A stretch of 64,000 bases of DNA, from contig CAYIFB010000002.1 of the NCBI GenBank assembly GCA_964362665.1, positions 14,404 through 78,403 of the forward strand, given 5' to 3'. The position numbers were made by a program, and so were the translations under genes. This stretch comes from an uncultured Gammaproteobacteria bacterium. GTDB lineage: Bacteria; Patescibacteriota; Microgenomatia; 2-02-FULL-39-11. Position 1 is the stretch's first letter. The number at the start of each line of letters is the position of its first letter. This document shows, one piece after another, positions 2,987 through 42,681 of this stretch. The notes under the pieces are model-generated. The model did no database searches and was not told the origin of the DNA. It saw only the letters and a program-made list of their open reading frames with translations.

Positions 2987-3376
2987 ATGGCGCCTTTAGC
3001 AGCCGATTTACAGCAGAATATTATGGTGACGGTGTACCTTCTTTTTTCCCATAACTATATTGCCTTTGCCTATTTTACCGGTCTGATTATAAGTATTATA
3101 TTATCGATTAAATGGCCGTCACGTTTTTCCACCTATTCTTTTTTAGGTTTTGCGATTCTTCTTTTCTCCTACGAATACGACAAACATATTATTGAAGGTC
3201 TTCGCCAACAGACTTTGAGGTCTCTTATCACCCTGCAGCCTCATCTTCGCTTTCAGAGACTTATCAGCGTAACGATTACTGAGATTCTGCCGATATTATT
3301 TTATATTGCAGGCTGGGCCTTTATCTACCTTGCCATTATCCACGCCGCGAGAAAACTGGGGAAGAAGGAAAAGTAA
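2987..3376 (+). CDS. hypothetical membrane protein
   Basis: 129 aa with three or more hydrophobic segments. Confidence 0.35.
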   Translation: MAPLAADLQQNIMVTVYLLFSHNYIAFAYFTGLIISIILSIKWPSRFSTYSFLGFAILLFSYEYDKHIIEGLRQQTLRSLITLQPHLRFQRLISVTITEILPILFYIAGWAFIYLAIIHAARKLGKKEK

Positions 3377-6144: not shown

Positions 6145-7041
6145 CTAAGACGAGGGAAGAGACATTCTTTTAATATTTCTGTATGTAAGATAATTCAATA
6201 AGGAAGATAATCCGCTTTCTCGGATAATGGAGTCAGACTTTGATGATCCGGGAATTGTTACACCGGCATCTTCCAAATAAGACTTTATGGTTTGCAGTTG
6301 ATCATGAAAGGATAAATAGACTTCAACTTCTCCCCGGTGCCTGGATAAAGCCTGATCCATTTTATGGACAAGCGAAACCGCATAAGCTGTTTTAAGCCCG
6401 TCGCTACCTGGGGTTTGCATGTCGATGACGCTCATATCGGCAAGCATGAGCAATACTCTTTCTATCGTCTTAGAATCACTGTTTAAAAGATGATGTATGC
6501 TATGGGCGACAGTATTGGCGTGTTCCGGAAAACCCCAGACTGTAAGTAATGCAATAGTTTTTAAAATATGATTTCCTTCCATCCTCCTCCAGGGAGATTG
6601 GGAGGGGTATGAATTCGTGTAAGGAGTTAAATCCACTTTATCCAATTCCCATTTTGCAACATCTTCGGAGGTGATTAAATTACCTAAATCATGGGCAAAC
6701 GCAGAAGTAACGAGCAAAGGCTCATCTACAACACTTGAACCGATCGTCGATTGAGATACTTGATTTAGCTGCCTACCAACTTCCGTAGTATAATTACATA
6801 CCAGTAGCGAGTGGCTTAAAAGCGAATGCGGGCCAGCTCTTTCTGCTTCAACCATCCGCTCTACCAGCCCTGACTCTTTTAGTTTCTGGGTTAACCGCAA
6901 TGAACTTTCAAAAGATGGGAAGGCAGGTTGGCACTCTTCATTGATATATCTTTCCAAACCTGTAACAATACCTACCCCGGTTACCTGACTAAGATGGTCA
7001 ATATTTAAGCTTCTAAGAAGTCCTAATCGTTCTACAGTCAT
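6145..7041 (-). CDS. HD-domain phosphohydrolase-like protein
   Basis: H...AFAHDLG pattern in the N-terminal half resembles the metal-binding H..HD motif. Confidence 0.4.
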   Translation of the reverse strand: MTVERLGLLRSLNIDHLSQVTGVGIVTGLERYINEECQPAFPSFESSLRLTQKLKESGLVERMVEAERAGPHSLLSHSLLVCNYTTEVGRQLNQVSQSTIGSSVVDEPLLVTSAFAHDLGNLITSEDVAKWELDKVDLTPYTNSYPSQSPWRRMEGNHILKTIALLTVWGFPEHANTVAHSIHHLLNSDSKTIERVLLMLADMSVIDMQTPGSDGLKTAYAVSLVHKMDQALSRHRGEVEVYLSFHDQLQTIKSYLEDAGVTIPGSSKSDSIIRESGLSSLLNYLTYRNIKRMSLPSS

Positions 7042-29938: not shown

Positions 29939-30127
29939 CTCACAGGTTCGTTAACGGATTCTAGTGCAGGGCCAGGTGGGAGTAAAATCTCTGAAAAGGG
30001 TTTTACCTGCCTAAAAAACTTTTTCAGCCCCAAATTAAGAAAGTTCGAACCGCAAATTGATTTTAGTATAAAGTAGGATATAATTTCCGAATCTTATTTA
30101 TTATTTCTCTTAAATTAAATTTTAAAT

Positions 30128-31531
30128 ATGACAACAACAGAATACCGAGTATCATCAAAACCATTTGAAGGTTTTGTTCCTGTTGATGTATTAAAGCCAC
30201 CCACAAAAATAGCCTTCATAGCTACAAGCGAGCTTCCGTCAGGAAAAGGTATTGGAAGAGCCTTGGGTATGGAAACATTAGCGCTTTATCTCCGACAAGT
30301 GGACGCCGGACAGACCTTAGAAATGCAGTTTTTAGATATGCAATATGCTGACATAGCCGACCCTATGGCACAGGTGAGATTGCTTTCTGAGGATTCGACC
30401 CTCGATATAGCAGCGATATCCGTCCGCTATAATACGTTTGAGCAAATGTGTCAGATTGTTGAAGTTTTTAGAACATCATCTAGATTTCAACAAACACGTA
30501 AACCATATCTGGTTGTAGGTGGAGTAATGCCTTCGTTCATGGCAAAAGAGATTATAGAAAAATTCCCCGAAATTGGACTTATATCTGGTGAAGGAGAGTT
30601 GGGTCTGAGGGAATTAGTCAGGGTGATAAGAAGTGGTGGATCACTTTACGAGGTACCAGGATTGACTTTTTATGATGCTGTAAAGAGTGAAATAGTCCAA
30701 AATCCAGCTGATAATCTTCCGCTTACTGAAATATCTGTTGGGGGCATTATCAAGGAACTTGTTCCACCATTAAGAGCAAAAGGTGGGATTGTTTGGATTT
30801 CTAGCAGTCGTGGCTGTCCGTGGGATTGCAGTTTTTGTAGTGTTGATACGTTCCGCGAAATAACAGGAGCGCGTGGTAAAACTCGCCGTGAAGAGCGACC
30901 TATTGAACATGTAATAGGGGAAATGAAAGCATTGTATCTAGAGGGTCTGCGTCATTTTGTATTTGCAGATGATGAGATGCTTGTACAGAACGCACAAGAT
31001 CTCAGACGTTGGTACGAGTTTGCTGAGGGATTTAAAAGTGTTGGTGATGATATAACTGTGCAGTGTTCTGTGAGGTCCGATGTTATCTTTAACAATAAAG
31101 ATCGAGATGGTGGAGTTGCAAGGGTAACTGCATTAACAGCGCTTTACGAAGCTGGTATGACTCATGTATATATCGGTTTTGAATCCGGATCACCTGCTCA
31201 GTTAAAAAGATATAATAAATCTGAAACTGTTGAGGATCATCTTGCGGCTATTGATAGATTAAGAAAGATCGGCATATTAGCCGGAGGAGGGTTTATAATG
31301 TTTGACCCTTTGATGAGTTTGGAAGAGATATTAGAGAATATCAGTTTTTTACGCAGAGCTGATTTAATCTCTTTGAAAAGAAAAGACTATGTGGGGGATA
31401 TTTTTGATATGCTTAGAGCTCAAAAAGAATCGATGTATGTTGAACTTCTCAAAAGTGAAGGCCTATTGAGAGAACCTATTCCAAATACCCTGTTTTATAA
31501 TTATGAATTTAAAGATCCAAGGGTAAGATGA
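30128..31531 (+). CDS. B12-binding-domain radical SAM protein
   Basis: WISSSRGCPWDCSFCSV gives a Cx3Cx2C radical SAM cluster. The N-terminal ~200 aa resemble a cobalamin-binding domain, as in class B rSAM. Confidence 0.6.
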   Translation: MTTTEYRVSSKPFEGFVPVDVLKPPTKIAFIATSELPSGKGIGRALGMETLALYLRQVDAGQTLEMQFLDMQYADIADPMAQVRLLSEDSTLDIAAISVRYNTFEQMCQIVEVFRTSSRFQQTRKPYLVVGGVMPSFMAKEIIEKFPEIGLISGEGELGLRELVRVIRSGGSLYEVPGLTFYDAVKSEIVQNPADNLPLTEISVGGIIKELVPPLRAKGGIVWISSSRGCPWDCSFCSVDTFREITGARGKTRREERPIEHVIGEMKALYLEGLRHFVFADDEMLVQNAQDLRRWYEFAEGFKSVGDDITVQCSVRSDVIFNNKDRDGGVARVTALTALYEAGMTHVYIGFESGSPAQLKRYNKSETVEDHLAAIDRLRKIGILAGGGFIMFDPLMSLEEILENISFLRRADLISLKRKDYVGDIFDMLRAQKESMYVELLKSEGLLREPIPNTLFYNYEFKDPRVR

Positions 31532-31612
31532 ATTGCCCAAACCTGTATTGGACTTGCGGCAGAGATAGATGTTTTTTTTGAAACGTTAAAAAACGCAGTC
31601 TTTGCCAAGACA

Positions 31613-31948
31613 ATGCAAGATGAAAGAAGTGCTGGAGCAAGCAATGATACAAATCTTTTAAATCATATACTTATAGATATGCGATTATTGGATTTATCTT
31701 TACTCGAAGCATTGACAAATCAAACCTTAGAACGAAAGAGTACATCACCTGAGAGAGTAGGTATGACTTTTGAAGATCTAGTATATTCCTACAGACTGGA
31801 AAGAAAAAAGTTGATAATGAAACTTGCAGATGAAATAAGATCAGGAAATGTAGAAGAAGAGGCGGGTGGGGTATTGCTCTCACGTATTCTCGAATTACCG
31901 GAGTTTCAAGAGGAACGACAAAGGGGAAATGTTCAAATTGTTATATAA
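31613..31948 (+). CDS. hypothetical protein
   Basis: 111-aa acidic ORF. Confidence 0.3.
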   Translation: MQDERSAGASNDTNLLNHILIDMRLLDLSLLEALTNQTLERKSTSPERVGMTFEDLVYSYRLERKKLIMKLADEIRSGNVEEEAGGVLLSRILELPEFQEERQRGNVQIVI

Positions 31949-32090
31949 GTTTAAGACTACGTATAGTTTGATATTCCACTTTATTCTAGATCTTTTTATA
32001 TAAAATTATAATTATTAAAAAGCTTAAAATCCTACTCTATATCCAGATAAAGTTTATACGCCATCAAAGGTGGTACCAACCTGCAGAACT

Positions 32091-32198
32091 TGCAGTGATT
32101 TATGAAAAAGTTCGAACCTATTTTCTCGCTGACTCCTAGCTCGCCCCGCCTCCGGCGGGGCTCGCATGGTCGGCGCGTCGCCCCCGCCCGACGCGCCT
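32091..32198. repeat. inverted repeat A' (108 bp, GC-rich), partner of 37732..37839
   Basis: Exact reverse-complement identity read directly from the sequence. Confidence 0.9.
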
Positions 32199-32669
32199 AA
32201 GGCATTGTCTGCGCGCGCGTTTTCTCTCTCCGCTGAGCGGATCGAGCAAGGTAGGATTATAGTAGCACAAAGCCCAGTACGTTGTGATTCCGTATCAACC
32301 CACCCACCCAAAACAAATATTGATGGCGGCGACCCCGCCTTGTGCGAGAGGGCGCCCTAGGGGGCGCCTCGCCAATGTTCAGGTAATTTATTTTCTCTTT
32401 CAGTCTCTACCGAAGTTAGTTTTGATTTAGCATGTCCTGCAGTCGGCGAGATATCCGCTTTTCGCCCCCGCCGCTCATATCGTATCCCTGTCCAGCGTTC
32501 GGTTGGCTTGCGCGCCCGCTTATGGGTACGCGCTTCGCGCGAAGATAATTATTTTAGCGCCCGGCGCGCCACGTTCGGATCGTGGATAGAGCGCGCGTAT
32601 GAACGCGCGCCTTTTAGCTAGTGCTACCCGGGGAAGCGGGGGCGGCGGAGCCGCCAAAGCTATTCTGAA

Positions 32670-33314
32670 TTAGAATTTTCTTTCAAAGTTGGTAGAAAAA
32701 GAAGAAAAAAAATTTCTGTAGATATCAGAGTTCGTCTTTGCGTGCCATAATTGTGTTAGATACTTGTGGATTCCGTTTTCAAAGCAGACTAAAAGCATAC
32801 GAGTATCAACAAGCAGTCTTTTTTTCTTTCTTTCCCATTTTAGCAAGTTTGGTAACGGTTCTATCAGGACACTATGACGTAAGAGAAATTTATGTACGAG
32901 TTGATTTCTGATTCCAAAGTAAAAAATTTCTGAATACTTAACTTTCTGTTTTTTGTAAAACCATTTCTCTCGACTTCCAATCTGTGCTGGATGGTATGGC
33001 TGTTTTATTTCTTTTTTAAATTGCTTGCTTAGATAATCTTCGAGAAATAAAGGAAAATATTTATTTGGTTCGTCTTTTGCATATCTAAATCTACTTAAAA
33101 ATTCGACCCCAACGGATACCATTACTGCTAATCCAAACATTGAACCCGCCTTTTCCTTAATGCGTTTTGTGTCTTCAATAAGCCATGGGAGTATTCTTCT
33201 ATTTTCAAACCAATAAAGTTTTTCGTTATCGGCTAGCTTAGAAAAGTCAATATCACTCCACGTTGAAGGAAAGAGGTCGATCATTACTTTTCTCTTTTTC
33301 GTTGGAGTTATCAT
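32670..33314 (-). CDS. hypothetical protein (island cargo, second gene of operon)
   Basis: 214 aa. Lies 9 nt downstream of the 343-aa gene on the same strand. Confidence 0.35.
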   Translation of the reverse strand: MITPTKKRKVMIDLFPSTWSDIDFSKLADNEKLYWFENRRILPWLIEDTKRIKEKAGSMFGLAVMVSVGVEFLSRFRYAKDEPNKYFPLFLEDYLSKQFKKEIKQPYHPAQIGSREKWFYKKQKVKYSEIFYFGIRNQLVHKFLLRHSVLIEPLPNLLKWERKKKRLLVDTRMLLVCFENGIHKYLTQLWHAKTNSDIYRNFFSSFSTNFERKF

Positions 33315-33322
33315 GGCTGTAA

Positions 33323-34354
33323 TTACTTATTAGAATTTCCGCTCACAAGTTGCAGTGGCGCTATAGTGAAAGAGGGGAATTCTTCGTCCTGTGGAAGTTC
33401 TGTTCCTGTAATGATTTTTCCAATTGCACGTCTAACATTTTGTGTATTTTGGTGGATAGCGGAATAAATTTTAAGACGGTCTTCCCAATCTCTTTTATGG
33501 CTATTTACTTCCTTAATAAGTAGATTATATGCCGCTCTAACCTTTTCCAAATTATCAACCATGTTTTTCTTGAATTCTCCAGTTTGCATATATCTCAAAA
33601 TTTCTCGTCCTTTTTGGTCTGTCTGTTCCTTGGTTAGCTTCATTCGATGGATATCAATAAGTATATTTCTTAATAGAAAAGCTAGATCCAGTAAGCCTAG
33701 TGGGTCAATGACAATAACTTCATCGTCAATAAAAAATTTAGATTTATTTTCTTTCTGTGCATGCGTTACAATAACGGCATAGTCTGCGCGTGCGACATCC
33801 TGATGACCCTTTATTTCTTTAACGAACCCATTATTATATTTTTCTGTTCTTTTGCATTCATATAAAACGCTTCCAACGTTTTCGTCGTTGAATACAACAA
33901 ATTGAATGACATCGCCCATTTTTCCAGTCGATTGGATTTTATCCGTGGGGAAAGCATCGGATAGCATTTTTTGGACCTCCTTTTCATATTCAAAGCCTGC
34001 TGTTTGAGGAGTTTTTCCTTCCTTAAGTTGTTTTTCTAGTTCTTGAATTTTTTTATTATTAGCTTGCAGTGCCTTAGTCTGATTTTGAAGCATTTTTGTC
34101 ATCCTCATCCGTTCGCTTTGTTCCTTTTTAATTCCTTTGGCTACACCCGACTCTTCTGCCAGTTTTGTCGCTTTTTTTACATCTTCTTGATATTTCTTCT
34201 TTAATTCCTCCTCCTGTTTTTTGTATTTATCAATCGCCTTTTTGGCCTCTATGATAATTTTTTGCCTTTCTTCCCATTGTCCTGTTATCCTTATCCAAGT
34301 TTCTCTTGTTAAGATGCTTTCGCATAGCGGGCATTTATAGGTTTGATTATCCAT
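33323..34354 (-). CDS. zinc-finger / coiled-coil protein with C-terminal PD-(D/E)xK-like nuclease motif
   Basis: N-terminal CPLC...C zinc knuckle, ~120 aa of Lys/Glu-rich coiled coil, then GDVIQFVVF...LYECK resembling the D...ExK nuclease core. Confidence 0.4.
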   Translation of the reverse strand: MDNQTYKCPLCESILTRETWIRITGQWEERQKIIIEAKKAIDKYKKQEEELKKKYQEDVKKATKLAEESGVAKGIKKEQSERMRMTKMLQNQTKALQANNKKIQELEKQLKEGKTPQTAGFEYEKEVQKMLSDAFPTDKIQSTGKMGDVIQFVVFNDENVGSVLYECKRTEKYNNGFVKEIKGHQDVARADYAVIVTHAQKENKSKFFIDDEVIVIDPLGLLDLAFLLRNILIDIHRMKLTKEQTDQKGREILRYMQTGEFKKNMVDNLEKVRAAYNLLIKEVNSHKRDWEDRLKIYSAIHQNTQNVRRAIGKIITGTELPQDEEFPSFTIAPLQLVSGNSNK

Positions 34355-34416
34355 ATATTTTTACTTCTTGACAATAGTCATAGAAAAGTAATAAATTAAT
34401 AATAGACCAACTGCCT

Positions 34417-35019
34417 ATGAAAGTCAATGCCGCCATGACCATAACACCGAAGCAGAAGCAGGTATTGGATTTCATCAAGAGCTTCGTCAAAAATAACGGC
34501 TATTCGCCGTCGCTCCATGAGATCGCGGGACATTTCCGAAAATCCGTCAGCACCGCTCAGCATTTCGTCGAGGAGCTGGACAATAGGGGATTTCTTCAAA
34601 AAACAGACAATGTAGCCCGTGGAATCAGCACGGCAATCCAGCAATTTGGCCGCATCTTCAAGCTCGGCGTCATCGCCGCAGGCAATCCGATAGAACCGAT
34701 TGAGAATCCGGAACCGATCGATGTGCCTTTATCTATGATAAGCAGAAAAGGAGATTACTATGCGCTTGAAGTAAGGGGGACCAGCATGATGGACGATAAT
34801 ATTCTTGACGGGGATATTATTGTTGTCCGACACCAGAAAATTGTAGAGGATGGCGATCGAGTAGTTGCGGTTACGGAAAAAGGCGCCACTCTAAAAGTTT
34901 ATCGGAATAGAAATGGTAAAGTATATCTTGAGCCTCGAAATAAGTCCTTAAGCAATATTTATCCAAAAGAGCTTGAGATTCGCGGCAAGTTTTGTGGTTT
35001 AATAAGAAAAGGAGACTAA
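34417..35019 (+). CDS. LexA-like S24 autopeptidase repressor
   Basis: N-terminal winged HTH (SPSLHEIAGHF). C-terminal ALEVRGTSMMDDNILDGDIIVV matches the S24 Ser-Lys peptidase motif GxSM...GD. Confidence 0.75.
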   Translation: MKVNAAMTITPKQKQVLDFIKSFVKNNGYSPSLHEIAGHFRKSVSTAQHFVEELDNRGFLQKTDNVARGISTAIQQFGRIFKLGVIAAGNPIEPIENPEPIDVPLSMISRKGDYYALEVRGTSMMDDNILDGDIIVVRHQKIVEDGDRVVAVTEKGATLKVYRNRNGKVYLEPRNKSLSNIYPKELEIRGKFCGLIRKGD

Positions 35020-35044
35020 ATGAATCTGCCCATCAATAAAATCA

Positions 35045-35452
35045 ATGACAGATGTATTTACAAAGAAAAAGCGGAGCCTGATAATGTCGCGGATAAGTGG
35101 AAAGCATACATTGCCGGAATTAAGAGTTAGAAAAGCACTTTACAGTATAGGTATAAGATACAGATTGCACAATAAGAAGCTTTCTGGGCATCCGGATATT
35201 GTTATTAGGAGAAAGAAAGCGGCTTTATTCGTTAATGGTTGTTTTTGGCATCAGCATAAGAATTGCAAGAGAAGTACTATACCGAAAACGAATAAAAAGT
35301 ATTGGCTGCCGAAATTAAAAAGGAATATTGAAAAGCAAGTAGAGGATTTTAGGAAATTAAGAAAAGAAGGGTGGAAGACGACAGTCGTTTGGGAATGTCA
35401 AACAAAAAATCAGATTAAGCTCGAATCAAGATTAAGAAGAATATTTGTATGA
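35045..35452 (+). CDS. vsr: very-short-patch-repair endonuclease
   Basis: KRSLIMSRI...PDIV...FVNGCFWHQH aligns with Vsr (TRSKNMRAI...PDFV...FTHGCFWHHH). Overlaps the start of the downstream m5C methyltransferase. Confidence 0.8.
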   Translation: MTDVFTKKKRSLIMSRISGKHTLPELRVRKALYSIGIRYRLHNKKLSGHPDIVIRRKKAALFVNGCFWHQHKNCKRSTIPKTNKKYWLPKLKRNIEKQVEDFRKLRKEGWKTTVVWECQTKNQIKLESRLRRIFV

Positions 35453-36555
35453 AGAAAAAAGTTTTCAGAATTGCAGAATTATTTTCAGGTCCCGGCGGCT
35501 TGGCTTTTGGTGCCGTCAATACGCACGTATCTACTTCTGATTTGGAATATACGCTTGAATCAGTTTGGTCAAATGACATTGACGCGGATGCCTGCAGAAC
35601 CTATGCCCGAAATATTCATGGCGGCGATCAATCGAAAACAATCTGCAAACCTGTTCAGGAGCTTGATTTCGAAAAGCTTCCTGCATTCGATGCTTTAGCT
35701 TTCGGATTTCCATGCAATGACTTCAGCGTTGTGGGAGAACAGAAGGGGTTCAATGGAAAATATGGACCTCTTTATTCCTACGGAGTAAAAGCAATCAACG
35801 CACATAACCCAATGCTGTTTATTGCAGAAAATGTCAGCGGACTGCAGAGCGCGAACAAAGGAGATGCGTTTGCAAAGATTTTGAGCGATTTAGAGCACGC
35901 GGGCAAGGGATATCGCTTAACAACTCATCTTTATAAATTCGAAGACTACGGTGTACCGCAATATAGACACAGGGTAGTTATTATCGGAATTCGGAGTGAT
36001 CTGAATCTAAAGTTCAACGTGCCTGCTCCTACAACTTTGCAGAAATATGTTACCGCGCGGGATGCTCTTGAAAAACCGCCTATTTCTGCAGATGCGCCAA
36101 ACAACGAATTGACGCGGCAGTCTGAGGTTGTGATTGAAAGATTGAAATACATACCGCCTGGGAAGAATGCTTGGTATGAAGGCATTCCTGAACACCTGCG
36201 GCTGAACGTAAAAAAAGCACGCATGAGTCAGATATACAAGCGTCTTGATCCTAATAAGCCCGCATACACAATTACTGGTTCAGGCGGCGGCGGCACCCAT
36301 GTCTATCATTGGAAGGAAAATAGAGCGCTGACTAATAGGGAGCGTGCGCGCCTGCAATCCTTTCCTGATAAGTTTGTTTTTGAAGGATCAAAAGAGAGCG
36401 TGCGCAAACAGATCGGCATGGCTGTTCCTCCAAAAGGAGCAAGTGCAGTAATTTCGGCTGTATTGAAAACTTTCGCCGGGTTATCTTATCCATCTGTTCC
36501 GGCAAAACTTACGAACGGGTTTCCTCCGCTCAACGGAATGCTGTTTGATTTTTAG
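35449..36555 (+). CDS. DNA (cytosine-5)-methyltransferase
   Basis: Motif I FSGPGG, motif IV PCNDFS, motif VI ENV, and a C-terminal QIGMAVPP-type motif. Confidence 0.85.
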   Translation: MKKKVFRIAELFSGPGGLAFGAVNTHVSTSDLEYTLESVWSNDIDADACRTYARNIHGGDQSKTICKPVQELDFEKLPAFDALAFGFPCNDFSVVGEQKGFNGKYGPLYSYGVKAINAHNPMLFIAENVSGLQSANKGDAFAKILSDLEHAGKGYRLTTHLYKFEDYGVPQYRHRVVIIGIRSDLNLKFNVPAPTTLQKYVTARDALEKPPISADAPNNELTRQSEVVIERLKYIPPGKNAWYEGIPEHLRLNVKKARMSQIYKRLDPNKPAYTITGSGGGGTHVYHWKENRALTNRERARLQSFPDKFVFEGSKESVRKQIGMAVPPKGASAVISAVLKTFAGLSYPSVPAKLTNGFPPLNGMLFDF

Positions 36556-37391
36556 AGGATGCTGATAAGCTTCTCCCAATCTTTCCTATTTTTCTTCAGG
36601 AGACCGGATTTTTTTACAAACCTTTTTCCGTCGAATTCCTGACCCTCAATGCTCGTTACTTCTTCCAGATCATCGGCCCAACACCATCCGGATACCTCGC
36701 AGGGAATTTCGGAAAAGTCCGGAATAACGGCGCTGTATTTGCTGAAGTGAGGCATATTTTTCACAACTGACACGATTTCCTGTTTTGCAATTCTCAACAG
36801 ATGGTCGTCAGGAATTTCCGGTCTGCAGTAAATATATATGTCCGAACGCCGAGCTGGGATATTTATTTCATTTTCACCCAAAATCAAATACGCGCTTTTT
36901 GGCTTCGATGATTTTATTCCGACGCCTTTGCGTGGCTTCTGCATTTTACCGTTTCGTACAATACCGATAATGTCCTGCGGCACGATCTCTCCGTAGATAT
37001 TAAAATCAAGTTCGACTTCTGTATTGAATTCCTTTTTGAAGAATTTTTTGACGGCTACTTCGCCAAGCTGTCCTTTAACCCAATTGGTGATTTTTTGACC
37101 GAATTCGCGTTGTCTCGCGGTACCCCAATCAGAAAGCACATATCCGCGGAAATGCTGAGCAAGAGCAAAGTCGAGACATAAGGCATAATCAGCCTTTGTT
37201 AAACTGATGGTCCGCCACGCATAGCTCTTTTTCCATTCTGCAAGGGTTTCCTCCGAAAACATGAATCTGCCGTGGGAGCCGTTTCTTTCCATGCATTTGA
37301 ACTCCTCGGCGTTTTTGAAGTAGTTGTCGAAAGCCTTCGGATCAAGGCCGGTATAGGCGATTGCGTCTTTTTTGCTTAGTATCTTGCCCAT
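36552..37391 (-). CDS. putative type II restriction endonuclease
   Basis: Convergent with and overlapping the methyltransferase. Immediately downstream of a C-protein gene. No recognised family. Confidence 0.45.
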   Translation of the reverse strand: MGKILSKKDAIAYTGLDPKAFDNYFKNAEEFKCMERNGSHGRFMFSEETLAEWKKSYAWRTISLTKADYALCLDFALAQHFRGYVLSDWGTARQREFGQKITNWVKGQLGEVAVKKFFKKEFNTEVELDFNIYGEIVPQDIIGIVRNGKMQKPRKGVGIKSSKPKSAYLILGENEINIPARRSDIYIYCRPEIPDDHLLRIAKQEIVSVVKNMPHFSKYSAVIPDFSEIPCEVSGWCWADDLEEVTSIEGQEFDGKRFVKKSGLLKKNRKDWEKLISIL

Positions 37392-37392
37392 A

Positions 37393-37614
37393 TTATTTGA
37401 TAAAGTATTCGATATTCTTTCTGTAGATTTCTGCGATTTGTTTCAGTTGGACAAGATCGATTCTTCGTTGTCCAGATTCCATTTTTGAAATATATGACTG
37501 CGACTTATTCAGCAGTTTTGCCGCAGTTTTCTGATCGAGCTTGGCAGAGAGCCGGGCAGATTTCAGCTTTTCGATAAGATTTTTATGCTCTTTTGTATAG
37601 ATGTCTTTTGACAT
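37393..37614 (-). CDS. XRE-family HTH controller (C) protein
   Basis: 73 aa. QKTAAKLLNKSQSYISKMESGQRRI is an HTH_XRE motif. Its stop abuts the restriction enzyme start. Confidence 0.6.
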   Translation of the reverse strand: MSKDIYTKEHKNLIEKLKSARLSAKLDQKTAAKLLNKSQSYISKMESGQRRIDLVQLKQIAEIYRKNIEYFIK

Positions 37615-37640
37615 AAGCTGATTTGACTTATTGTATGATA

Positions 37641-37674
37641 TATTCCAAAATAGAATATGCCAAAATGGAATATA
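37641..37674. promoter_or_regulatory. candidate C-box operator: tandem 13-nt repeats CCAAAAT(A/G)GAATA
   Basis: Two direct repeats separated by 2 nt, 30-60 nt upstream of the C-protein start. Confidence 0.35.
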
Positions 37675-37731
37675 CGTACAGAAATTTCTGCGGGGTCTTT
37701 AAATTTTAAAATTTCGAGCCGATGCGTTTGC

Positions 37732-37839
37732 AGGCGCGTCGGGCGGGGGCGACGCGCCGACCATGCGAGCCCCGCCGGAGGCGGGGCGAGCTAGGAGTCA
37801 GCGAGAAAATAGGTTCGAACTTTTTCATAAATCACTGCA
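37732..37839. repeat. inverted repeat A (108 bp)
   Basis: Reverse complement of 32091..32198. Overlaps repeat B by the 5-nt CTGCA. Confidence 0.9.
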
Positions 37840-37936
37840 GAAAGAGAATTCGAGGCTCCGCCGGATGGTTGGCTCTGCGCGGGTGGGGTCGCGCAGAGTG
37901 TTTGGAAGGGCTCGCGGAAAACGGCCGAGAGCCGCC
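37835..37936. repeat. inverted repeat B (102 bp), partner of 39379..39480
   Basis: Exact reverse-complement identity. Begins with CTGCAG. Confidence 0.9.
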
Positions 37937-37982
37937 GAAGACAAAAAGAAGGAAAGACCCCGCAGAAATTTCTTTTCATTAT

Positions 37983-39503
37983 ATGAAATACATTGCGTAC
38001 TGTAGAAGATCGACTGATGAGAAAGATAGGCAAGTTCTGTCTATAGAGGCGCAAATTGCAGAAATTAAAGAATACGCAAAGCGGGAGCAGGTAGATATCG
38101 CTGAATTCATCACCGAGTCTAGAACCGCCAAGGAGCCGGGCCGTCCATTATTTGCCGATCTTATAGGTAAAATTGAACGGGGACTGGCCTCTGGCATTAT
38201 CGCATGGCATCCTGATAGACTTGCCCGTAATTCTATAGACGGCGGCCGGATTATTTACCTTATCGACATCGGCAAGCTCGGCGGGCTCAAATTTCCGACG
38301 TTTTGGTTTGAAAATACGCCGCAGGGAAAATTCATGCTCTCAATCGCCTTCGGCCAGTCCAAATATTACGTCGATAACCTCTCGGAAAATGTGAAGCGCG
38401 GCATCCGGCAGAAGCTGAGAAACGGCGTGTGGCCGCATAATGCACCGCTTGGCTATCTCAACGATCTTAAAGTGCATTCCATTCTCGTTGATCCAAAGAC
38501 CGCGCCGCTCGTGCAGAAATCATTTAAACGATTTGCGTCGCGCACTGTTTCATTTACTGATATTGCGCGCATGTTTGCTGATAGCGGAATTCGTAGGAAA
38601 AGCGGCCGCATTATTCATATCAACACAGTGCGCAACATGCTCGCCAACAGATTTTATATCGGGCAAATGATTCATCTTGGCGAATATTACGATGGTACGC
38701 ATGAACAGATTATTGATCGAAATTTATTTTATAAGGTACAGACGGAGCTAATGCGTATTGAGCGTCCGCATTTCAAGGGACATCATTTTCCGTTTGTGGG
38801 ACTTGCGCGGTGCGGAGAGTGCGGCGGGGCAATTACCGGAGAAATCCATACAAAATATTATCGCACCACCCGAGGAAAAGTTACATACACATATTACCGA
38901 TGTACGAAGAAATTTGGTCCGTGTTTTAGTAGGTATCTTACCGATTCCGAATTTGAGAAACAGATTCGAGTATTGGTTGCTTCGGTTGGATTGCCGCAGG
39001 AGTGGGAGAGTGAGTGGCGGCAGAAATTTACTATGGATTCGGAATCGGAAAAGATTGGGGCAGAGAAACGGCGGCAAGTTTTGGAATTAAAATTAGCGGA
39101 TATAAATGGAAAGCTCGATCTGTTGCTCGATGGACTTCTTGATCAGACGATTGATCAGGGTGCATATCGGAAAAAGAAAAATACGCTTTCAGAAAATAAG
39201 CGTCAAACGGATGAAGAAAAGAAAGATATTTTGTCGGGGAAAAATAAACGGCTCGAACTCATGAAGGAATTTATAGACAGCGCCTTTCAGGCGCATAAAA
39301 TCGCGCGCGCAGACAATGCCTGCGAAGATTTGGCAATCTTCGCCAAACGCATCGGCTCGAACTTCTTTTTGAAAGACCGGCGGCTCTCGGCCGTTTTCCG
39401 CGAGCCCTTCCAAACACTCTGCGCGACCCCACCCGCGCAGAGCCAACCATCCGGCGGAGCCTCGAATTCTCTTTCTGCAGGTCCGCAGCGATTCGAACGC
39501 TGA
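37983..39503 (+). CDS. large serine recombinase (resolvase/invertase-type catalytic domain + recombinase domain + zinc ribbon + coiled coil)
   Basis: MKYIAYCRRSTDEKDRQVLSIEAQ contains the catalytic Ser. The resolvase core is followed by a recombinase domain, a CGECGG...C zinc ribbon and a coiled coil. The upstream extension of the ORF (from 37722) lies inside repeats A/B and was rejected. Confidence 0.85.
   Translation: MKYIAYCRRSTDEKDRQVLSIEAQIAEIKEYAKREQVDIAEFITESRTAKEPGRPLFADLIGKIERGLASGIIAWHPDRLARNSIDGGRIIYLIDIGKLGGLKFPTFWFENTPQGKFMLSIAFGQSKYYVDNLSENVKRGIRQKLRNGVWPHNAPLGYLNDLKVHSILVDPKTAPLVQKSFKRFASRTVSFTDIARMFADSGIRRKSGRIIHINTVRNMLANRFYIGQMIHLGEYYDGTHEQIIDRNLFYKVQTELMRIERPHFKGHHFPFVGLARCGECGGAITGEIHTKYYRTTRGKVTYTYYRCTKKFGPCFSRYLTDSEFEKQIRVLVASVGLPQEWESEWRQKFTMDSESEKIGAEKRRQVLELKLADINGKLDLLLDGLLDQTIDQGAYRKKKNTLSENKRQTDEEKKDILSGKNKRLELMKEFIDSAFQAHKIARADNACEDLAIFAKRIGSNFFLKDRRLSAVFREPFQTLCATPPAQSQPSGGASNSLSAGPQRFER
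39379..39480. repeat. inverted repeat B' (102 bp)
   Basis: Reverse complement of 37835..37936. Encodes the last ~35 codons of the recombinase and ends inside the tRNA-Trp 3' end. Confidence 0.9.
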
Positions 39504-39548
39504 ATAAGGGTTTTGGAGACCCTTGTGATACCATTTCACTACGGACCT
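39478..39548 (-). tRNA. trnW: tRNA-Trp (anticodon CCA)
   Basis: Folded by hand. Acceptor AGGUCCG/CGGACCU (7 bp), U8, D-stem GUGA/UCAC, anticodon stem AGGGU/ACCCU with loop CUCCAAA, 4-nt variable loop, T-arm CAGCG-UUCGAAU-CGCUG, discriminator G. The anticodon loop is identical to E. coli tRNA-Trp. CCA is not encoded. Confidence 0.8.
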
Positions 39549-39612
39549 ATTTTTAGTTTTCCCAGAATGGATTATTAATCAGCCTCATGAGTATTATAAC
39601 AAATTTTTGCGC

Positions 39613-40197
39613 TTACTGGATGAATTTAAAGGAAGAGATGGCGTTCTGGAATGTGGTGCCGTAGCCTGCGATAATCACTTCTTCATCTCGCGAGGGATGT
39701 TTGACTATTACCTCATCGCGGGGGGAATTATCGCTATTTGTATCATGATAAAGCGTTGCCGGCTGGCCATCGACGATAATTGATTCAATTTTTTCCGCCT
39801 TCACAGGAGGGATGGGAATTTTTTCTGAGCAGGCGACAGCGATTGATATTTTATCATCATCGGGATTGGTAAAAATAATGGATTTTTCGTTTGTAGACTG
39901 TTGCCGGATGAAGTTTCCCGGATAGGAAAAGGAAACGCCGCAGGTTTTATCGGTAAAGGTGATTTTGGAGGAGGAAACAGGAGTTAAAGCTGCACTGATG
40001 GTTGATATGACCGTCGGAGAGAGAAATAAAGTTGGAGTTGGTATTTTTGATGGGGTAATTATAGAAGTCGGAGAAAGATTTGTTGATATTTTCGACTGGG
40101 TGATGCCGATTTTTTTGCCTAAATTTACTCCGACCAAAAAGACTGCGACGATACTCAGGAAAAAAATGAGAAAGATGGTGCCTTTGGCCATTTTCAA
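39613..40197 (-). CDS. hypothetical membrane-anchored protein
   Basis: N-terminal TM helix. Low-complexity Ser/Thr/Pro segment. Confidence 0.35.
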   Translation of the reverse strand: MKMAKGTIFLIFFLSIVAVFLVGVNLGKKIGITQSKISTNLSPTSIITPSKIPTPTLFLSPTVISTISAALTPVSSSKITFTDKTCGVSFSYPGNFIRQQSTNEKSIIFTNPDDDKISIAVACSEKIPIPPVKAEKIESIIVDGQPATLYHDTNSDNSPRDEVIVKHPSRDEEVIIAGYGTTFQNAISSFKFIQ

Positions 40198-40208
40198 ATA
40201 ACAGTAAT

Positions 40209-40382
40209 TTAGTCTAACTTATCCGATTCCTTGTGTTGTGTAGCTTTGCGGCAGCGCCGGCAATATTTATGCAATTCCAGCTTGTCTTTGACGTTCAGCT
40301 TATTTTTGGTCGTGACGTAATTCTGGCTTTTGCAGTCTTTACAAACTAAAGCGATAATGATTCTTTGTTCTTTTTTGGCCAT
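40209..40382 (-). CDS. rpmG: 50S ribosomal protein L33
   Basis: Not in the ORF track (57 aa). [30 protein letters not shown]...[18 protein letters not shown] matches the L33 pattern C..C..NY..KNK.N...LELKKYC..C.K.T.H.E. Confidence 0.8.
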
Positions 40383-40428
40383 ACTTCGATTCTCTCAGTA
40401 CAAGTACTTCGATTCCCTCAGTACAAGT
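40383..40428. repeat. 23-nt direct tandem repeat x2 in the rpmG 5' region
   Basis: acttcgattctctcagtacaagt / acttcgattccctcagtacaagt. Confidence 0.6.
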
Positions 40429-40577
40429 GTAGAGATTATATAAAATTATATAGTAAGTAGCAAGTATGAAGAATCGAGTATCAACTCCGGAGGACTGATG
40501 CGAGGGTATTGACAAACAGTTTTATTTTGTTTAGTCTTAATATATTGGTGGAAATTTAATCAGAATATAGCCTTAAA

Positions 40578-41297
40578 ATGAAAAAAGTTCTGCGTAAAAT
40601 AAGTTTTGCCGTACTTATCAATCTGACTCTGATGTTGGTTGTAGTTACAGGTCAGGCGAAGGCTGAGCCTTACGGATGGAGTCCTCAAACAGATTTTTCC
40701 AATCAGGGTCCGCCTCAATGTACAGATGCCAAGCCGGATAAGGCACCAATCCTTCTTCAGCCGAACCATCCTAAACTGCCAAAGAAAGCAACGAAAGCAG
40801 GAGAGGTTGTTTTATATTGGCATAAAGTTCCCGGAGCAACAGGTTATAATATCTATTACGGTTTGTCCCCGAAAAATTATATTTACACAGCTCCCGATAT
40901 TGGCGATACCGATAATTTCACTATAGGTTATCTGGCCAATAAAAACTACTATTTTGCCGTTCAGGCGAAAAAAGGCTGTGCGGCCTCGTCTATATCAAAT
41001 GAATGGATAGGCCGTCCCGGAAAAGGCGGGTATTATACTGCCGTCGCCAAGTATACTCCTATTAAAAAAACAACCGCTCCATATGTTCCAACCTCAGCAG
41101 GAACGACAGTAGTCATACCTACAACCGCTCCTCAGGTGCAGGGAATAAGCACGGAGAAACAGCCAACAACAGTAAAAAACAACTATCAAGCACCGAAGAA
41201 TACTGTATACCAACCACAACCGACTGCCGTTGTTCCAACCCAGGCACCAAAACCAAAAGGTCTATGGCAGCAATTTCTAGGTATCTTCGGTCTCTAA
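40578..41297 (+). CDS. secreted hypothetical protein (beta-sandwich-like N-domain, Thr/Pro/Gln-rich tail)
   Basis: Signal peptide. No recognised catalytic motif. Confidence 0.35.
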   Translation: MKKVLRKISFAVLINLTLMLVVVTGQAKAEPYGWSPQTDFSNQGPPQCTDAKPDKAPILLQPNHPKLPKKATKAGEVVLYWHKVPGATGYNIYYGLSPKNYIYTAPDIGDTDNFTIGYLANKNYYFAVQAKKGCAASSISNEWIGRPGKGGYYTAVAKYTPIKKTTAPYVPTSAGTTVVIPTTAPQVQGISTEKQPTTVKNNYQAPKNTVYQPQPTAVVPTQAPKPKGLWQQFLGIFGL

Positions 41298-41376
41298 AGA
41301 AAAAGCAATTAAACTAGTGCTCCAAAAGTTCACCTTCCTTATTTTCTGATGGCAGTTTATAATATTAATTATTCAT

Positions 41377-42681
41377 ATGGGTATGTTCAGACGTATCGTT
41401 AATAGCCAGATGACGCGTGGAAGCGTCATTATTTTTATCGGAACAAATATCGGAAATTTTATCAATTTGCTTTTCAATTTTTCGATGGGAAGATTACTCG
41501 GTCCGGTAAAATATGGCGAATTAGGTGCGCTGTTTTCTTCCTCAATTCTCATAGGAGTATTGCTTAGTATTCTCAGTCTTTTTACCGTAAAGGCGGTTTC
41601 TTCGTACTGGGGTAAAAAGGATCTTGGTAAAATACGCGCTTTTCATACGTTTCTGACGCCCAGACTTTTTTTATTGAGTTTTTTAATTTGCATATTATTA
41701 TTGATTATTACTCCCAAGATGAGCGGATTTCTGTATCTAGACAGTTTCACTCCTTTTATTTTAGTAGCGTTATCATTTATTTTAAGCGGACCCGCCACCT
41801 TCAATAAAGGAATACTTCAGGGAGTACTTGCTTTTTCATACGTCACCGTAAACGGAGTAGTTGAGGTAGTGCTGAAACTGATAATATCGGTTATCCTGGT
41901 GATTTTAAATTTTGGATTAATTGCTCCGGTATTAGGAGCGCTGCTTGGAGGGATGGTAGGCTATATATTAACTGTGGTGGAGTTGAAGATCATTTTCAGG
42001 GATGTGGTATATAAAAAAAACAGCCTTGTTTCATGGGATTTGCTGAAATCTTTTTTTCCGGTGACTTTAGCCAGTCTGACTTTGGCGGTATTTTTAAATA
42101 TTGATATTATTTTAGTACGGCATTTTTTTTCGGGAAGTATTGCCGGCGAGTATGTAGCTCTTTCTACAATCAGCAAAATTATTTTTTACGGAATTGGACC
42201 GGTTATTTCAGTGATGTTTCCCCTGATTTCGACTAGGTCAAGCAACGGCCTGCCTTACCTTATTCCGCTTTTAGGTACTTTGGTGATATCGCTCGGGCTT
42301 TCTGCGGTCATTATGTTTATTTTCTTTCTCTTCCCGAAGCTGGTTATCGGCCTTCTTTTTGGCGGTAGTTACCTCAGTATCACTGCGTATTTAGGTCTTT
42401 TTTCCTTTTTTATCACCATCTTCAGTCTTAATTCTATTCTGACTTACTTTCTTTTATCCGTCTCGTATTACCGGCCAATCTACCCGCTTTTTCTCATTTC
42501 CCTGTTGCAAGGGGTTTTTATTTTCATATTTCATGATAATATATGGCAGGTGATTTGGGTAAATATCGCAGTCAGCATTCTCTATTTTATGGTAATTTCT
42601 TTTTTTGTGTTGAAAAAAGAAGGAAGTTTTATTAATAAGTTTATATTTAATAAATTATCCGGTCATATTTATGCAGAATAA
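41377..42681 (+). CDS. Wzx-like polysaccharide flippase (MOP superfamily)
   Basis: 434 aa with ~12 predicted TM helices. The N-terminus resembles PF01943 polysaccharide biosynthesis proteins. Confidence 0.5.
   Translation: MGMFRRIVNSQMTRGSVIIFIGTNIGNFINLLFNFSMGRLLGPVKYGELGALFSSSILIGVLLSILSLFTVKAVSSYWGKKDLGKIRAFHTFLTPRLFLLSFLICILLLIITPKMSGFLYLDSFTPFILVALSFILSGPATFNKGILQGVLAFSYVTVNGVVEVVLKLIISVILVILNFGLIAPVLGALLGGMVGYILTVVELKIIFRDVVYKKNSLVSWDLLKSFFPVTLASLTLAVFLNIDIILVRHFFSGSIAGEYVALSTISKIIFYGIGPVISVMFPLISTRSSNGLPYLIPLLGTLVISLGLSAVIMFIFFLFPKLVIGLLFGGSYLSITAYLGLFSFFITIFSLNSILTYFLLSVSYYRPIYPLFLISLLQGVFIFIFHDNIWQVIWVNIAVSILYFMVISFFVLKKEGSFINKFIFNKLSGHIYAE

Follow-up and report, generated by a model that had tools for sequence, protein, structure and literature searches.

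A probable tRNA-targeted integrative island of Patescibacteria that keeps an inverted copy of its own joined ends

In the 64,000-nucleotide stretch of DNA analyzed here, which we call the window (contig CAYIFB010000002.1 of assembly GCA_964362665.1, positions 14,404 to 78,403), a large serine recombinase gene and a restriction–modification (R-M) cargo lie next to each other beside a tRNA-Trp gene, each between the arms of its own perfect inverted repeat. We think it probable that this region, 32091-39480, is an integrative island of the candidate phyla radiation (CPR)/Patescibacteria that was inserted by its large serine recombinase at the 3′ end of a tRNA gene, and that the sequence at which its two repeats meet is attP-like. 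The outer arm of the cargo repeat (A) is the left terminus of the island, the outer arm of the recombinase repeat (B′) is its right terminus, and the sequence between the two modules (A′·B) is an inverted copy of these termini, joined at a short core; the perfect inverted brackets around both the cargo and the recombinase modules are a consequence of this internal A′·B copy. We call A′·B attP-like because an excised circle would be expected to show this very sequence where it is closed, and from the sequence we infer that the recombinase of the window would catalyze the attP × attB reaction, with a crossover staggered by 2 bp.

Junctions and repeats of the island

The inverted repeats were mapped by a repeat search on 30000-42000 and by BLAST self-comparison against the whole window, an exact self-alignment that the first-pass annotation of this DNA had proposed; both long repeats are perfect, and neither has a further copy in the 64 kb. 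Repeat A (32091-32198 / 37732-37839) is inverted, 108 nucleotides (nt) long and 100% complementary, just as that annotation had described it. Repeat B (37835-37937 / 39378-39480) is likewise inverted and 100% complementary, and it measures 103 nt rather than the 102 bp first given. Neither repeat can have arisen by chance. The pentamer CTGCA at which A and B had been reported to overlap is indeed shared by A′ and B, at 37835-37839, and B′, which had been said to end inside a tRNA, reaches 4 nt into tRNA-Trp(CCA). This tRNA gene (39477-39548, minus strand; found by ARAGORN, with an Rfam tRNA score of 62.9 bits) is the integration target and has been left intact, its 3′ end abutting B′, so that B′ covers the final 4 nt of the tRNA. 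The anatomy proposed earlier, in which nested repeats bracket the cargo and the recombinase and finish at a tRNA, therefore stands, but the repeats are not short crossover sites; they are the ends of the island together with the inverted copy in which these ends are joined.

An island of this kind has three junctions made of four half-sites: host flank/A, A′/B and B′/tRNA. We aligned these three junctions in 26 loci, and the same correspondence holds throughout. The internal junction reads A′ + core + B; the left junction, as its reverse complement, reads A′ + core + unrelated flank; and the right junction, also as its reverse complement, reads tRNA 3′ end + core + B. The host-side flanks of the relatives have nothing in common. 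The core consists of the last two bases of the acceptor stem, the discriminator and the C(CA) of whichever tRNA is resident, amounts to 4-7 nt or more, and varies from tRNA to tRNA: CTGCA for Trp, CGAC for Pro, CTAC for Glu, TCACC for Lys, GCAC for Tyr, Arg and Leu, and GTCCACA for Val. Because the cores of the relatives are mostly non-palindromic, the internal junction must be truly inverted with respect to the outer two. The other side of the internal junction mimics a tRNA: the last ~25 nt of A′, which are conserved family-wide (rGTTCGAAyTTTTTCrTAAAnnn-core), resemble a tRNA 3′ end, with a T-loop-like GTTCGAA that stands 15 nt from the core, as compared with 11 nt in a real tRNA (+4 bp). 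Direct repeats that could be target-site duplications were sought on either side of A..A′ and of B..B′, and none was found.

In the window itself, repeat A at the left end of the island (32091..32198) starts with TGCAG, continues with the tRNA-like half-site ..AAAAAGTTCGAAC.. and then forms two GC-rich hairpins; its inverted copy A′ (37732..37839) ends with the corresponding half-site, GGTTCGAACTTTTTCATAAATCA, and the core CTGCA (37835..37839), which is common to all three junctions and corresponds to the final two acceptor-stem nucleotides of tRNA-Trp plus the discriminator and CA. Repeat B (37835..37937) duplicates the 3′ end of the recombinase gene in inverted form, without coding for protein; joined to A′, it makes up the attP-like sequence, which stops 45 nt short of the recombinase start. 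Repeat B′ (39378..39480) serves both as the right terminal sequence of the island and as the coding sequence of the conserved recombinase C-terminus (RRLSAVFREPFQTLCATPPAQS...). On the host side of the left junction (32079..32090, plus strand), ACCTGCAG stands 4 nt from A and mirrors the tRNA-Trp end. The empty site reconstructed from the window sequence, in which ..GGACCTGCA is joined to AGTTCTGCAGGT.., would have dyad symmetry, and the predicted empty tRNA-Trp site of the island is GCGGACCTGCAAGTTCTGCAGGTTGGTACC.

The recombinase gene (37983..39503, plus strand) encodes 506 aa in an open reading frame (ORF) that crosses B′ and extends over 27 nt of the tRNA-Trp antisense strand before it stops. 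The protein has a Resolvase domain (PF00239, E = 4.8e-19, residues 4-150 in Pfam; it also matches 3g13), with a Y-C-R-x-S motif (S10) that is invariant in 12 aligned homologues, and the C-terminal domains PF07508 Recombinase (E = 3e-15) and PF13408 Zn_ribbon_recom (E = 4.6e-07), again in Pfam; a weak, marginal match (E ~ 5e-5) links residues 202-328 to the structures 4kis and 6dnw of the A118/LI integrase. An assignment to the invertase family had been made earlier; these domains instead identify a 506-aa large serine recombinase of integrase type and not one of the Hin/Gin type. Since the homologues all begin at MKYIAYCR, the true start is the ATG at 37983, and the longer ORF at 37722-39503 (593 aa) is an artefactual 5′ extension, its 87 upstream codons being read from A′·B. 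The stretch encoded by B′, RRLSAxFxxPFxxLCAxPPAQS, is conserved among homologues at the protein level, which makes B′ a genuine coding sequence. The first-pass annotation was thus right that B brackets the recombinase gene and that B′ codes for the C-terminus (the last ~34 residues), but the bracket is not purely external, as B′ sits within the coding sequence.

Nearly all homologues run at their C-termini into peptides of the GVEP.., GIEPG.. or RLELS.. type, which are reverse-complement translations of tRNA T-arms. In one recombinase cluster (at least 90% identity), a common C-terminus up to ..SAISKMV is followed by at least nine different tRNA-derived tails, which implies recent movement among tRNA genes and broad tRNA targeting. 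Protein databases bear the marks of this arrangement as well. Among the recombinase versions that we surveyed there (proteins P0001-P0224), some carry a false N-terminal extension from A′·B, such as the 593-aa form (P0121), and the C-terminal tails are the antisense translation of whichever tRNA follows; the layout of the island explains both. An exact look-up of the window's own recombinase found neither its 506-aa nor its 593-aa form on record.

Three shorter inverted repeats accompany the long ones. I3 (24 nt, 96%) has one arm at 32200..32223, in the GC-rich, non-coding L region that lies directly inside repeat A (32199..32665), and its partner, I3′, inside the recombinase 3′ coding region (39298..39321), where it codes for ..IARADNA..; it is kept in the relatives L001, L008 and L009. 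I7 (21 nt, 95%; module TTCGAGCCGATGCGTTTG) pairs 37710..37730 with I7′ at 39344..39364, so that the former is an inverted copy of recombinase-gene sequence coding for ..KRIGSN... This is the module that had been reported as 18 bp long, lying left of A and, inverted, left of B′; the copy left of B′ is where it was said to be, but the other one is left of A′. Finally, I6 (21 nt, 100%; AGAAATTTCTGCGGGGTCTTT) frames the internal A′·B junction, with its left arm at 37680..37700 and its right arm, a candidate operator, at 37953..37973, ending 10 nt before the recombinase ATG. The same I6 pair is found, identical, in L001 and L096; it is possibly an operator or an accessory binding site.

A layout shared by relatives

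How common is this arrangement? Thousands of protein clusters match the recombinase, and the family has at least 585 relatives among GTDB species representatives; those named belong to Gottesman-, Woese-, Levy-, Shapiro-, Collier- and Roizmanbacteria and other Patescibacteria. We surveyed 88 recombinase genes in about 90 loci (L-numbers such as L001 or L008 denote loci of relatives, and WIN is the window's own locus). A B-type repeat surrounds the recombinase gene in 57 of the 61 testable loci, with a median length of 103 nt and a median identity of 98.3% (24 loci at 99% or more), and about 38 loci of the survey have an abutting A-type repeat around the cargo. A convergent tRNA gene stands at the B′ end in 58 of 72 loci, 25 anticodons being represented, and in all 58 the recombinase gene points toward the tRNA. 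For example, L001 (GCA_964515005.1), which comes from another host and whose recombinase is 91% identical to that of the window and whose own tRNA-Trp sequence, flanks and 2.6-kb cargo are all different, carries equivalent perfect repeats of 108 nt and 103 nt, plus I3, I6 and I7. The 108-nt and 103-nt layout is also present in L011, an ordinary internal junction is seen in an 89%-identical relative (L096, the P0123 contig), and distant relatives (42-59% identity) beside tRNA-Trp, -Glu, -Pro and -Lys have an equal layout.

Among close relatives the cargo differs and the island ends are conserved. Across the family, the cargo may be a type I or type II R-M system, a toxin–antitoxin pair, a Shedu-like gene or only about 550 nt of sequence, and minimal elements hold ~550-1000 nt besides the recombinase gene. 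Because the repeats are present across the survey loci, we regard them as a family trait that is independent of cargo and requires neither R-M nor LexA genes. Full-text literature searches found no description of this architecture, in keeping with the opinion of the first-pass annotation that such a layout had not been characterized.

The arms evolve in concert. Comparison of WIN, L001 and L011 gives 13, 13 and 8 differences in the 103 positions of repeat B between loci, and none between the two arms of any one locus; repeat A shows 1-7 differences between the same loci and 0-2 within them. Arms that differ between loci, yet not within a locus, must be continuously homogenized. The route is likely gene conversion or crossing-over between the arms; alternatively, some unspecified step in the life cycle of the element could rebuild one arm from the other.

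The surveyed loci come from IDBA, MEGAHIT and SPAdes assemblies as well as from records titled complete genome or chromosome (L057, L075, L036). Many related contigs start or end inside B, as expected if the repeat makes a branch in the assembly graph. Several genomes hold more than one member of the family (L014/L064 on one contig; L018/L053 and L032/L049, each pair in one metagenome-assembled genome (MAG); also L051 and L008), and such multiple copies probably contribute to the fragmentation of CPR assemblies. Additionally, many third-party annotation (TPA) co-assembly MAGs with typically CPR loci (L013, L017, L019, L021 and others) are titled ‘uncultured Gammaproteobacteria’, ‘Pseudomonadales’ or ‘Nitrospirales’, and these record labels look unreliable.

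Islands may also accumulate at one site. In L002, three A-type left ends in like orientation (3270-3307, 4109-4146 and 6520-6575) lie upstream of a single recombinase, each starting with TGCAGTG and continuing with a CTGCCTGCCGGCAGGCAG hairpin between T-runs; this looks like the stepwise accretion of islands at one tRNA-Trp, with loss of the older recombinase genes.

Orientation and rare rearrangements

Do the two modules flip? In assembled consensus sequences their orientation is almost fixed. The region just inside A adjoins the distal arm in all comparisons that we made (WIN/L001/L011/L013/L017, L007/L052, L037/L043/L044 and L032/L034), and exceptions are rare: the second recombinase (r2) of L008, L086, L082, L010 and the ancestor of L095. 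L008 is a chain that runs from tRNA-Lys through B r1 B′, A c1 A′ and B r2 B′ to further cargo, and its r2 is flipped, so that it reads into an A-type end. In L086 the tRNA is upstream and the recombinase reads away from it, also into an A-type end. Tails of this A type (..VFEQIRTYF and similar) make up about 8-10% of homologue tails.

Two further loci are instructive. L010, a contig of 935 bp, was assembled from Hainich groundwater; it is 100% identical to window positions 38596-39480 and then continues into A (32091-32145), not into the tRNA. Such a connection of recombinase 3′ end, B′ and A could come from a circle after excision, from a recombinase module that has flipped or, at 4x coverage, from the path that the assembler took. 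L095 (JGI Ga0315274_10000323, 3515-4205) is a recombinase-less derivative of a close relative of the window island. From the tRNA-Trp onward it has B and the last 66 recombinase codons, which are fused exactly at the 24-nt I3 to the L region, followed by the cargo, I6-I7-A′ and the flank. Because a deletion of this kind needs I3 and I3′ to be direct repeats, which they become only after inversion of the cargo, L095 is a fossil of a cargo flip that was followed by recombinase loss. A metagenome scan for the A′ end returned this single locus, with no empty site and no circle, and no circular contig of the element was recovered.

A different rearrangement is seen in L059 (9796-11582) and L087 (3775-5637), where a recombinase module lacking A lies between convergent isoacceptor tRNA genes (Glu-UUC/Glu-CUC and Ser-CGA/Ser-UGA). 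Judged by its sequence, this arrangement is what would be expected if the internal attP copy had reacted with a second tRNA site on the same molecule, and it is a hint that chromosomes can be rearranged between tRNA genes by these elements.

Flipping either module regenerates the same junctions with the same ~100-nt context, and the recombinase would change in no more than its last ~7-14 residues. The sequences of these relatives show that both brackets have inverted in the course of evolution; they give no support for a frequent regulated switch. Of the inversions that the first-pass annotation had suggested for the two segments, occasional evolutionary events are borne out by L008, L086, L010 and L095, but frequent, regulated switching is not. 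Its further suggestion, that the R-M cargo varies in phase relative to outside promoters, finds no support: the junctions are recreated by a flip, and orientation is nearly fixed (toward the tRNA in 58 of 58 loci).

Cargo, L region and neighboring sequence

The cargo of the window island spans 32670..37614. It comprises genes for a hypothetical protein (32670-33314, minus strand) and, identified with Pfam/PADLOC, a DUF2130 protein (33323-34354, minus), LexA (34417-35019, plus), Vsr (35045-35452, plus), a C5 cytosine methyltransferase (35449-36555, plus), a type II restriction enzyme (36552-37391, minus) and a helix-turn-helix (HTH) control protein (37393-37614, minus). The LexA is full-length, with a DNA-binding domain and an S24 peptidase, and stands beside the cassette of Vsr, C5 methyltransferase, restriction enzyme and control protein; it may tie the island or its R-M system to DNA damage.

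Between repeat A and the cargo, the L region (32199-32665) has a GC content of 0.50-0.56 and together with repeat A makes up ~570 nt (32091-32665). It is 82-87% identical at the nucleotide level in L001, L011 and L013, the last of which shares it although the L013 recombinase is only 55% identical and the target there is tRNA-Pro. Indels in the alignment are not multiples of three, and several hairpins show compensatory changes. In Rfam, the only matches were tRNAs and an L10 leader, whether the query was the window, the GC-rich region (E<=10) or any of seven related loci, so the repeats and the GC-rich region lie outside known RNA families. These sequence features make the L region with repeat A a candidate for a novel, subfamily-specific structured RNA or DNA element of ~570 nt.

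The GC-rich ORFs that had been set aside as spurious do exist as reading frames, but they arise from mirror reading of the repeats (32054-32311, minus; 32166-32360, plus; 37763-38005, plus; 37791-38054, minus; 39189-39539, minus; 39271-39534, minus). Just past the tRNA-side flank, an intergenic tandem direct repeat of 23 nt, TACTTCGATTCTCTCAGTACAAG, is present in two copies (96%) at 40382-40427.

Proposed mechanism and alternatives

The mechanism that we propose starts from a circular form of the island, whose attP, made of the A′ half and the B half, would be recombined by the recombinase with the 3′ end of a tRNA gene; the host-side half-site would play little part in integration. The excised circle would hold two identical attP copies of ~211 bp, inverted with respect to each other and separating a recombinase arc from a cargo arc. 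After integration, the internal attP copy would stay recombination-competent, and such a live copy would account for the recombinase modules that lie between two convergent isoacceptor tRNAs. The arms would be kept identical through gene conversion or the occasional crossover between them, which could be mediated by RecA or by the recombinase, and crossing-over would sometimes flip either module. Since a flip recreates the same junctions, it is probably a by-product rather than a switch of gene expression. A flip of the cargo would set the 24-nt I3 repeats direct, whereupon a deletion between them could rid the island of its recombinase gene and thereby immobilize it.

Several considerations weigh against this proposal. 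It is drawn from assembled sequences; the circle, the empty tRNA site and inversion in the population of the window are predictions, and L010 could reflect an assembler's path choice through the 103-nt repeat at 4x coverage. Arm identity of 100% over ~100 nt in many lineages demands more homogenization than is usually assumed for short repeats. Canonical large serine recombinases act on attP × attB only, or on attL × attR with a directionality factor. No directionality factor was identified here, no consistent small conserved ORF was found in the minimal cargo modules, and the minimal elements have no room for such a factor, which leaves the route of excision unexplained; inversion driven by the recombinase between attP-like and attL/attR-like sites would be non-canonical. 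Additionally, the A′ and B half-sites are dissimilar, unlike those of a typical attP, and the TTCGAA is shifted by 4 bp, whereas the structural model of A118/LI reportedly predicts a shift of about 5 bp. What, finally, is the benefit to the element of an internal inverted attP copy? The proposal does not explain it.

More tentatively, and as a possibility to which we give a clear minority of our confidence, the family may be a distinct class of mobile element: a serine integrase with two inverted attP copies, one of which is spent at any matching tRNA 3′ end while the other stays live. If so, the live copy could permit the flipping of modules, the capture of other tRNA sites or hopping to them, and perhaps, with no directionality factor involved, excision or the exchange of cassettes; the recombinase would use pairs of sites that canonical serine integrases refuse; and the ~570-nt structured region that starts with repeat A might act as an RNA cofactor or regulator.

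Other explanations of the repeats have to be weighed against that of a tRNA-targeted island. There is next to no chance that they are an assembly artefact or a chance duplication specific to the window contig. The arms do come near typical k-mer or read lengths, and many related contigs do end inside B, but the layout is found in 57 of 61 testable loci, from several assemblers and in records of complete genomes and chromosomes, and the arm sequences are lineage-specific and co-vary; we exclude an artefact because the layout recurs across assemblers and complete-titled records. A programmed double inverton, in which the recombinase reversibly inverts the cargo or its own gene, singly or together, and so brings the R-M/defence genes or the recombinase gene under the control of an outside promoter, for instance that of the tRNA, seems unlikely to us. 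The truly inverted sites, with cores that are non-palindromic in relatives, would suit it, as would the location of the recombinase gene inside one bracket (as with hin), the flipped recombinase modules of L008 and L086, the alternative connection that L010 shows in the same strain, the earlier cargo flip that L095 requires and the many contigs that break within B. The enzyme, however, is of the 506-aa integrase type and not a small invertase, and a flip yields identical junctions with ~100 nt of identical context, so that no obvious promoter or ORF would be switched. Moreover, all 58 tRNA-proximal recombinases face the tRNA, the region at the cargo end is equally oriented in every comparison, and the architecture is independent of cargo type, whether R-M, toxin–antitoxin, Shedu or only about 550 nt.

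We consider it improbable that the island consists of two insertion sequence (IS)-like units, namely an autonomous B-r-B′ unit with 103-nt terminal inverted repeats and a non-autonomous foldback unit A-cargo-A′, which were inserted separately at a tRNA-like end. The recombinase modules of L059 and L087, alone between two tRNA 3′ ends and without A, might be such units, modules with their own repeats alternate in L008, and cargo modules are exchanged between close relatives. But conservative serine recombination of a single module is barred by inverted, mostly non-palindromic cores, target-site duplications are lacking, B′ belongs to the ORF, A and B are invariably contiguous, meeting at a core that corresponds to the tRNA of the site, and the double-tRNA loci are equally well explained by the reaction of an internal attP with a second tRNA. 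Little credence, too, is due to a role of the repeats in RNA or transcription, with the GC-rich hairpins as symmetric insulators or terminators around the modules or, in a variant, with a 5′ leader from A′·B that pairs with the B′ 3′ end or an A-containing transcript and represses the recombinase. Stable local hairpins are present in the arms; the hairpin in the C-terminal coding sequence is kept across clades in structure, not in sequence (LCAxPPAQS, ALRAGGGARSA and ALSAEAGAASA types); each A-type end of L002 precedes a hairpin flanked by T-runs; and B, approached from the side of the tRNA, shows a GC hairpin of 9 bp with TGTTTGG after it. Nevertheless, a scan of the arms for promoter and terminator consensus sequences found nothing, with no terminator-like site in A′, B or B′; RNA pairing allows G-U and would not enforce 100% DNA identity; and the exact match of the arm ends to the island termini and the tRNA core would be left unexplained.

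Other candidates were rejected outright. Dispersed repeats of the miniature inverted-repeat transposable element (MITE) or repetitive extragenic palindrome (REP) kind would have further copies in the window, and there are none. Excision of single modules as circles with palindromic joints is ruled out by cores that are inverted and, in relatives, mostly non-palindromic. A prophage is ruled out by the cargo, which is R-M, LexA and similar genes, and only 4 weak relatives were found in IMG/VR. Some known kinds of element do not match either. An insertion sequence or transposon would not explain the lack of a target-site duplication and the occurrence of these elements only at tRNA 3′ ends or tRNA-like ends. 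A plasmid like the 2-micron circle does not fit minimal elements that carry only ~550-1000 nt besides the recombinase gene, nor was a circular contig recovered. A serine-invertase switch is at odds with the integrase-type C-terminal domains of the 506-aa enzyme and the near-fixed orientation, with no promoter or coding end that is switched.

Comparison with known systems

The mobile elements of CPR bacteria are poorly understood, and the family described here is very common and is apparently among the chief carriers of defence genes in these very small genomes. Its layout explains why CPR assemblies break at these recombinase genes. For those interested in retargetable integrases, a core that tracks the tRNA and near-identical enzymes that reside at many tRNAs make the family attractive, and the combination of an internal inverted attP with concertedly evolving arms of ~100 nt poses a testable question: how is directionality controlled without a directionality factor?

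The closest parallels are elements mobilized by large serine recombinases (the prophages phiC31, Bxb1 and A118/LI, SCCmec with its Ccr enzymes, Tn4451 with TnpX and Tn5397 with TndX), whose enzymes have the same resolvase, recombinase and zinc-ribbon architecture. In these elements, as in the CPR islands, the integrase gene is at the edge of the element, the junctions are precise and have no long direct repeats, a short core is shared and the cargo is variable. The CPR islands differ in that their targets are the 3′ ends of many different tRNA genes, in that an inverted copy of the joined ends is kept inside, so that integrase and cargo each lie within perfect inverted repeats of ~100 nt, in an ORF that crosses the junction into the tRNA, in the lack of an evident directionality factor and in an enzyme of marginal similarity to solved integrases (E ~ 5e-5). 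The authors of Islander state that tRNA-gene targeting is unknown for serine integrases, and the survey of large serine recombinases by Durrant et al. does not mention tRNA.

Serine invertases offer a second comparison. Salmonella Hin with its hix sites, Mu Gin, P1 Cin and e14 Pin resemble the present system in combining a serine recombinase with inverted sites, and the Hin segment contains the recombinase gene. Invertases are ~190 aa long, with a C-terminal helix-turn-helix, and act on 26-bp dyad-symmetric sites, helped by an enhancer to which Fis binds; their segments coexist in either orientation, and the orientation switches a promoter or a tail-fibre ORF. Here, the enzyme is a 506-aa integrase type, the arms are 103-108 nt long, orientation is near-fixed and no gene is evidently switched. 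If a circle of the island exists, it would also bear a likeness to the yeast 2-micron plasmid, with its FLP/FRT system in 599-bp inverted repeats: two inverted repeats of ~211 bp would separate two arcs, one of them encoding the recombinase, and flip isomers would result. FLP, though, is a tyrosine recombinase, and the 2-micron circle is a eukaryotic nuclear plasmid with replication and partition functions of its own, whereas minimal CPR elements have no replication genes and the circle of the CPR island is deduced rather than observed.

Tycheposons and classical tRNA islands are, like the CPR islands, small cargo or defence islands at tRNA genes, of which several may be accreted at one tRNA (here in L002). 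Of 937 tycheposons, 910 use tyrosine integrases (bioRxiv 10.1101/2020.12.28.424599). Tycheposons and classical tRNA islands leave a direct repeat of the 3′ part of the tRNA; here there is none, and the repeats are inverted. An attachment site within the integrase gene has a precedent in the intP gene of myxophage Mx8, which contains attP and encodes a tyrosine recombinase whose C-terminus differs between the integrated and excised states. The Mx8 integrase ORF spans the attachment site as the recombinase ORF does here; the enzyme is of the tyrosine type, and there is no inverted duplicate of the site. By its enzyme and its behavior, then, the element is an island driven by a large serine recombinase; new among characterized islands of this kind are its targets, which are the ends of many tRNA genes, the inverted copy of both joined termini that it keeps inside, the bracketing of the integrase gene by inverted repeats and an ORF that runs past the junction.

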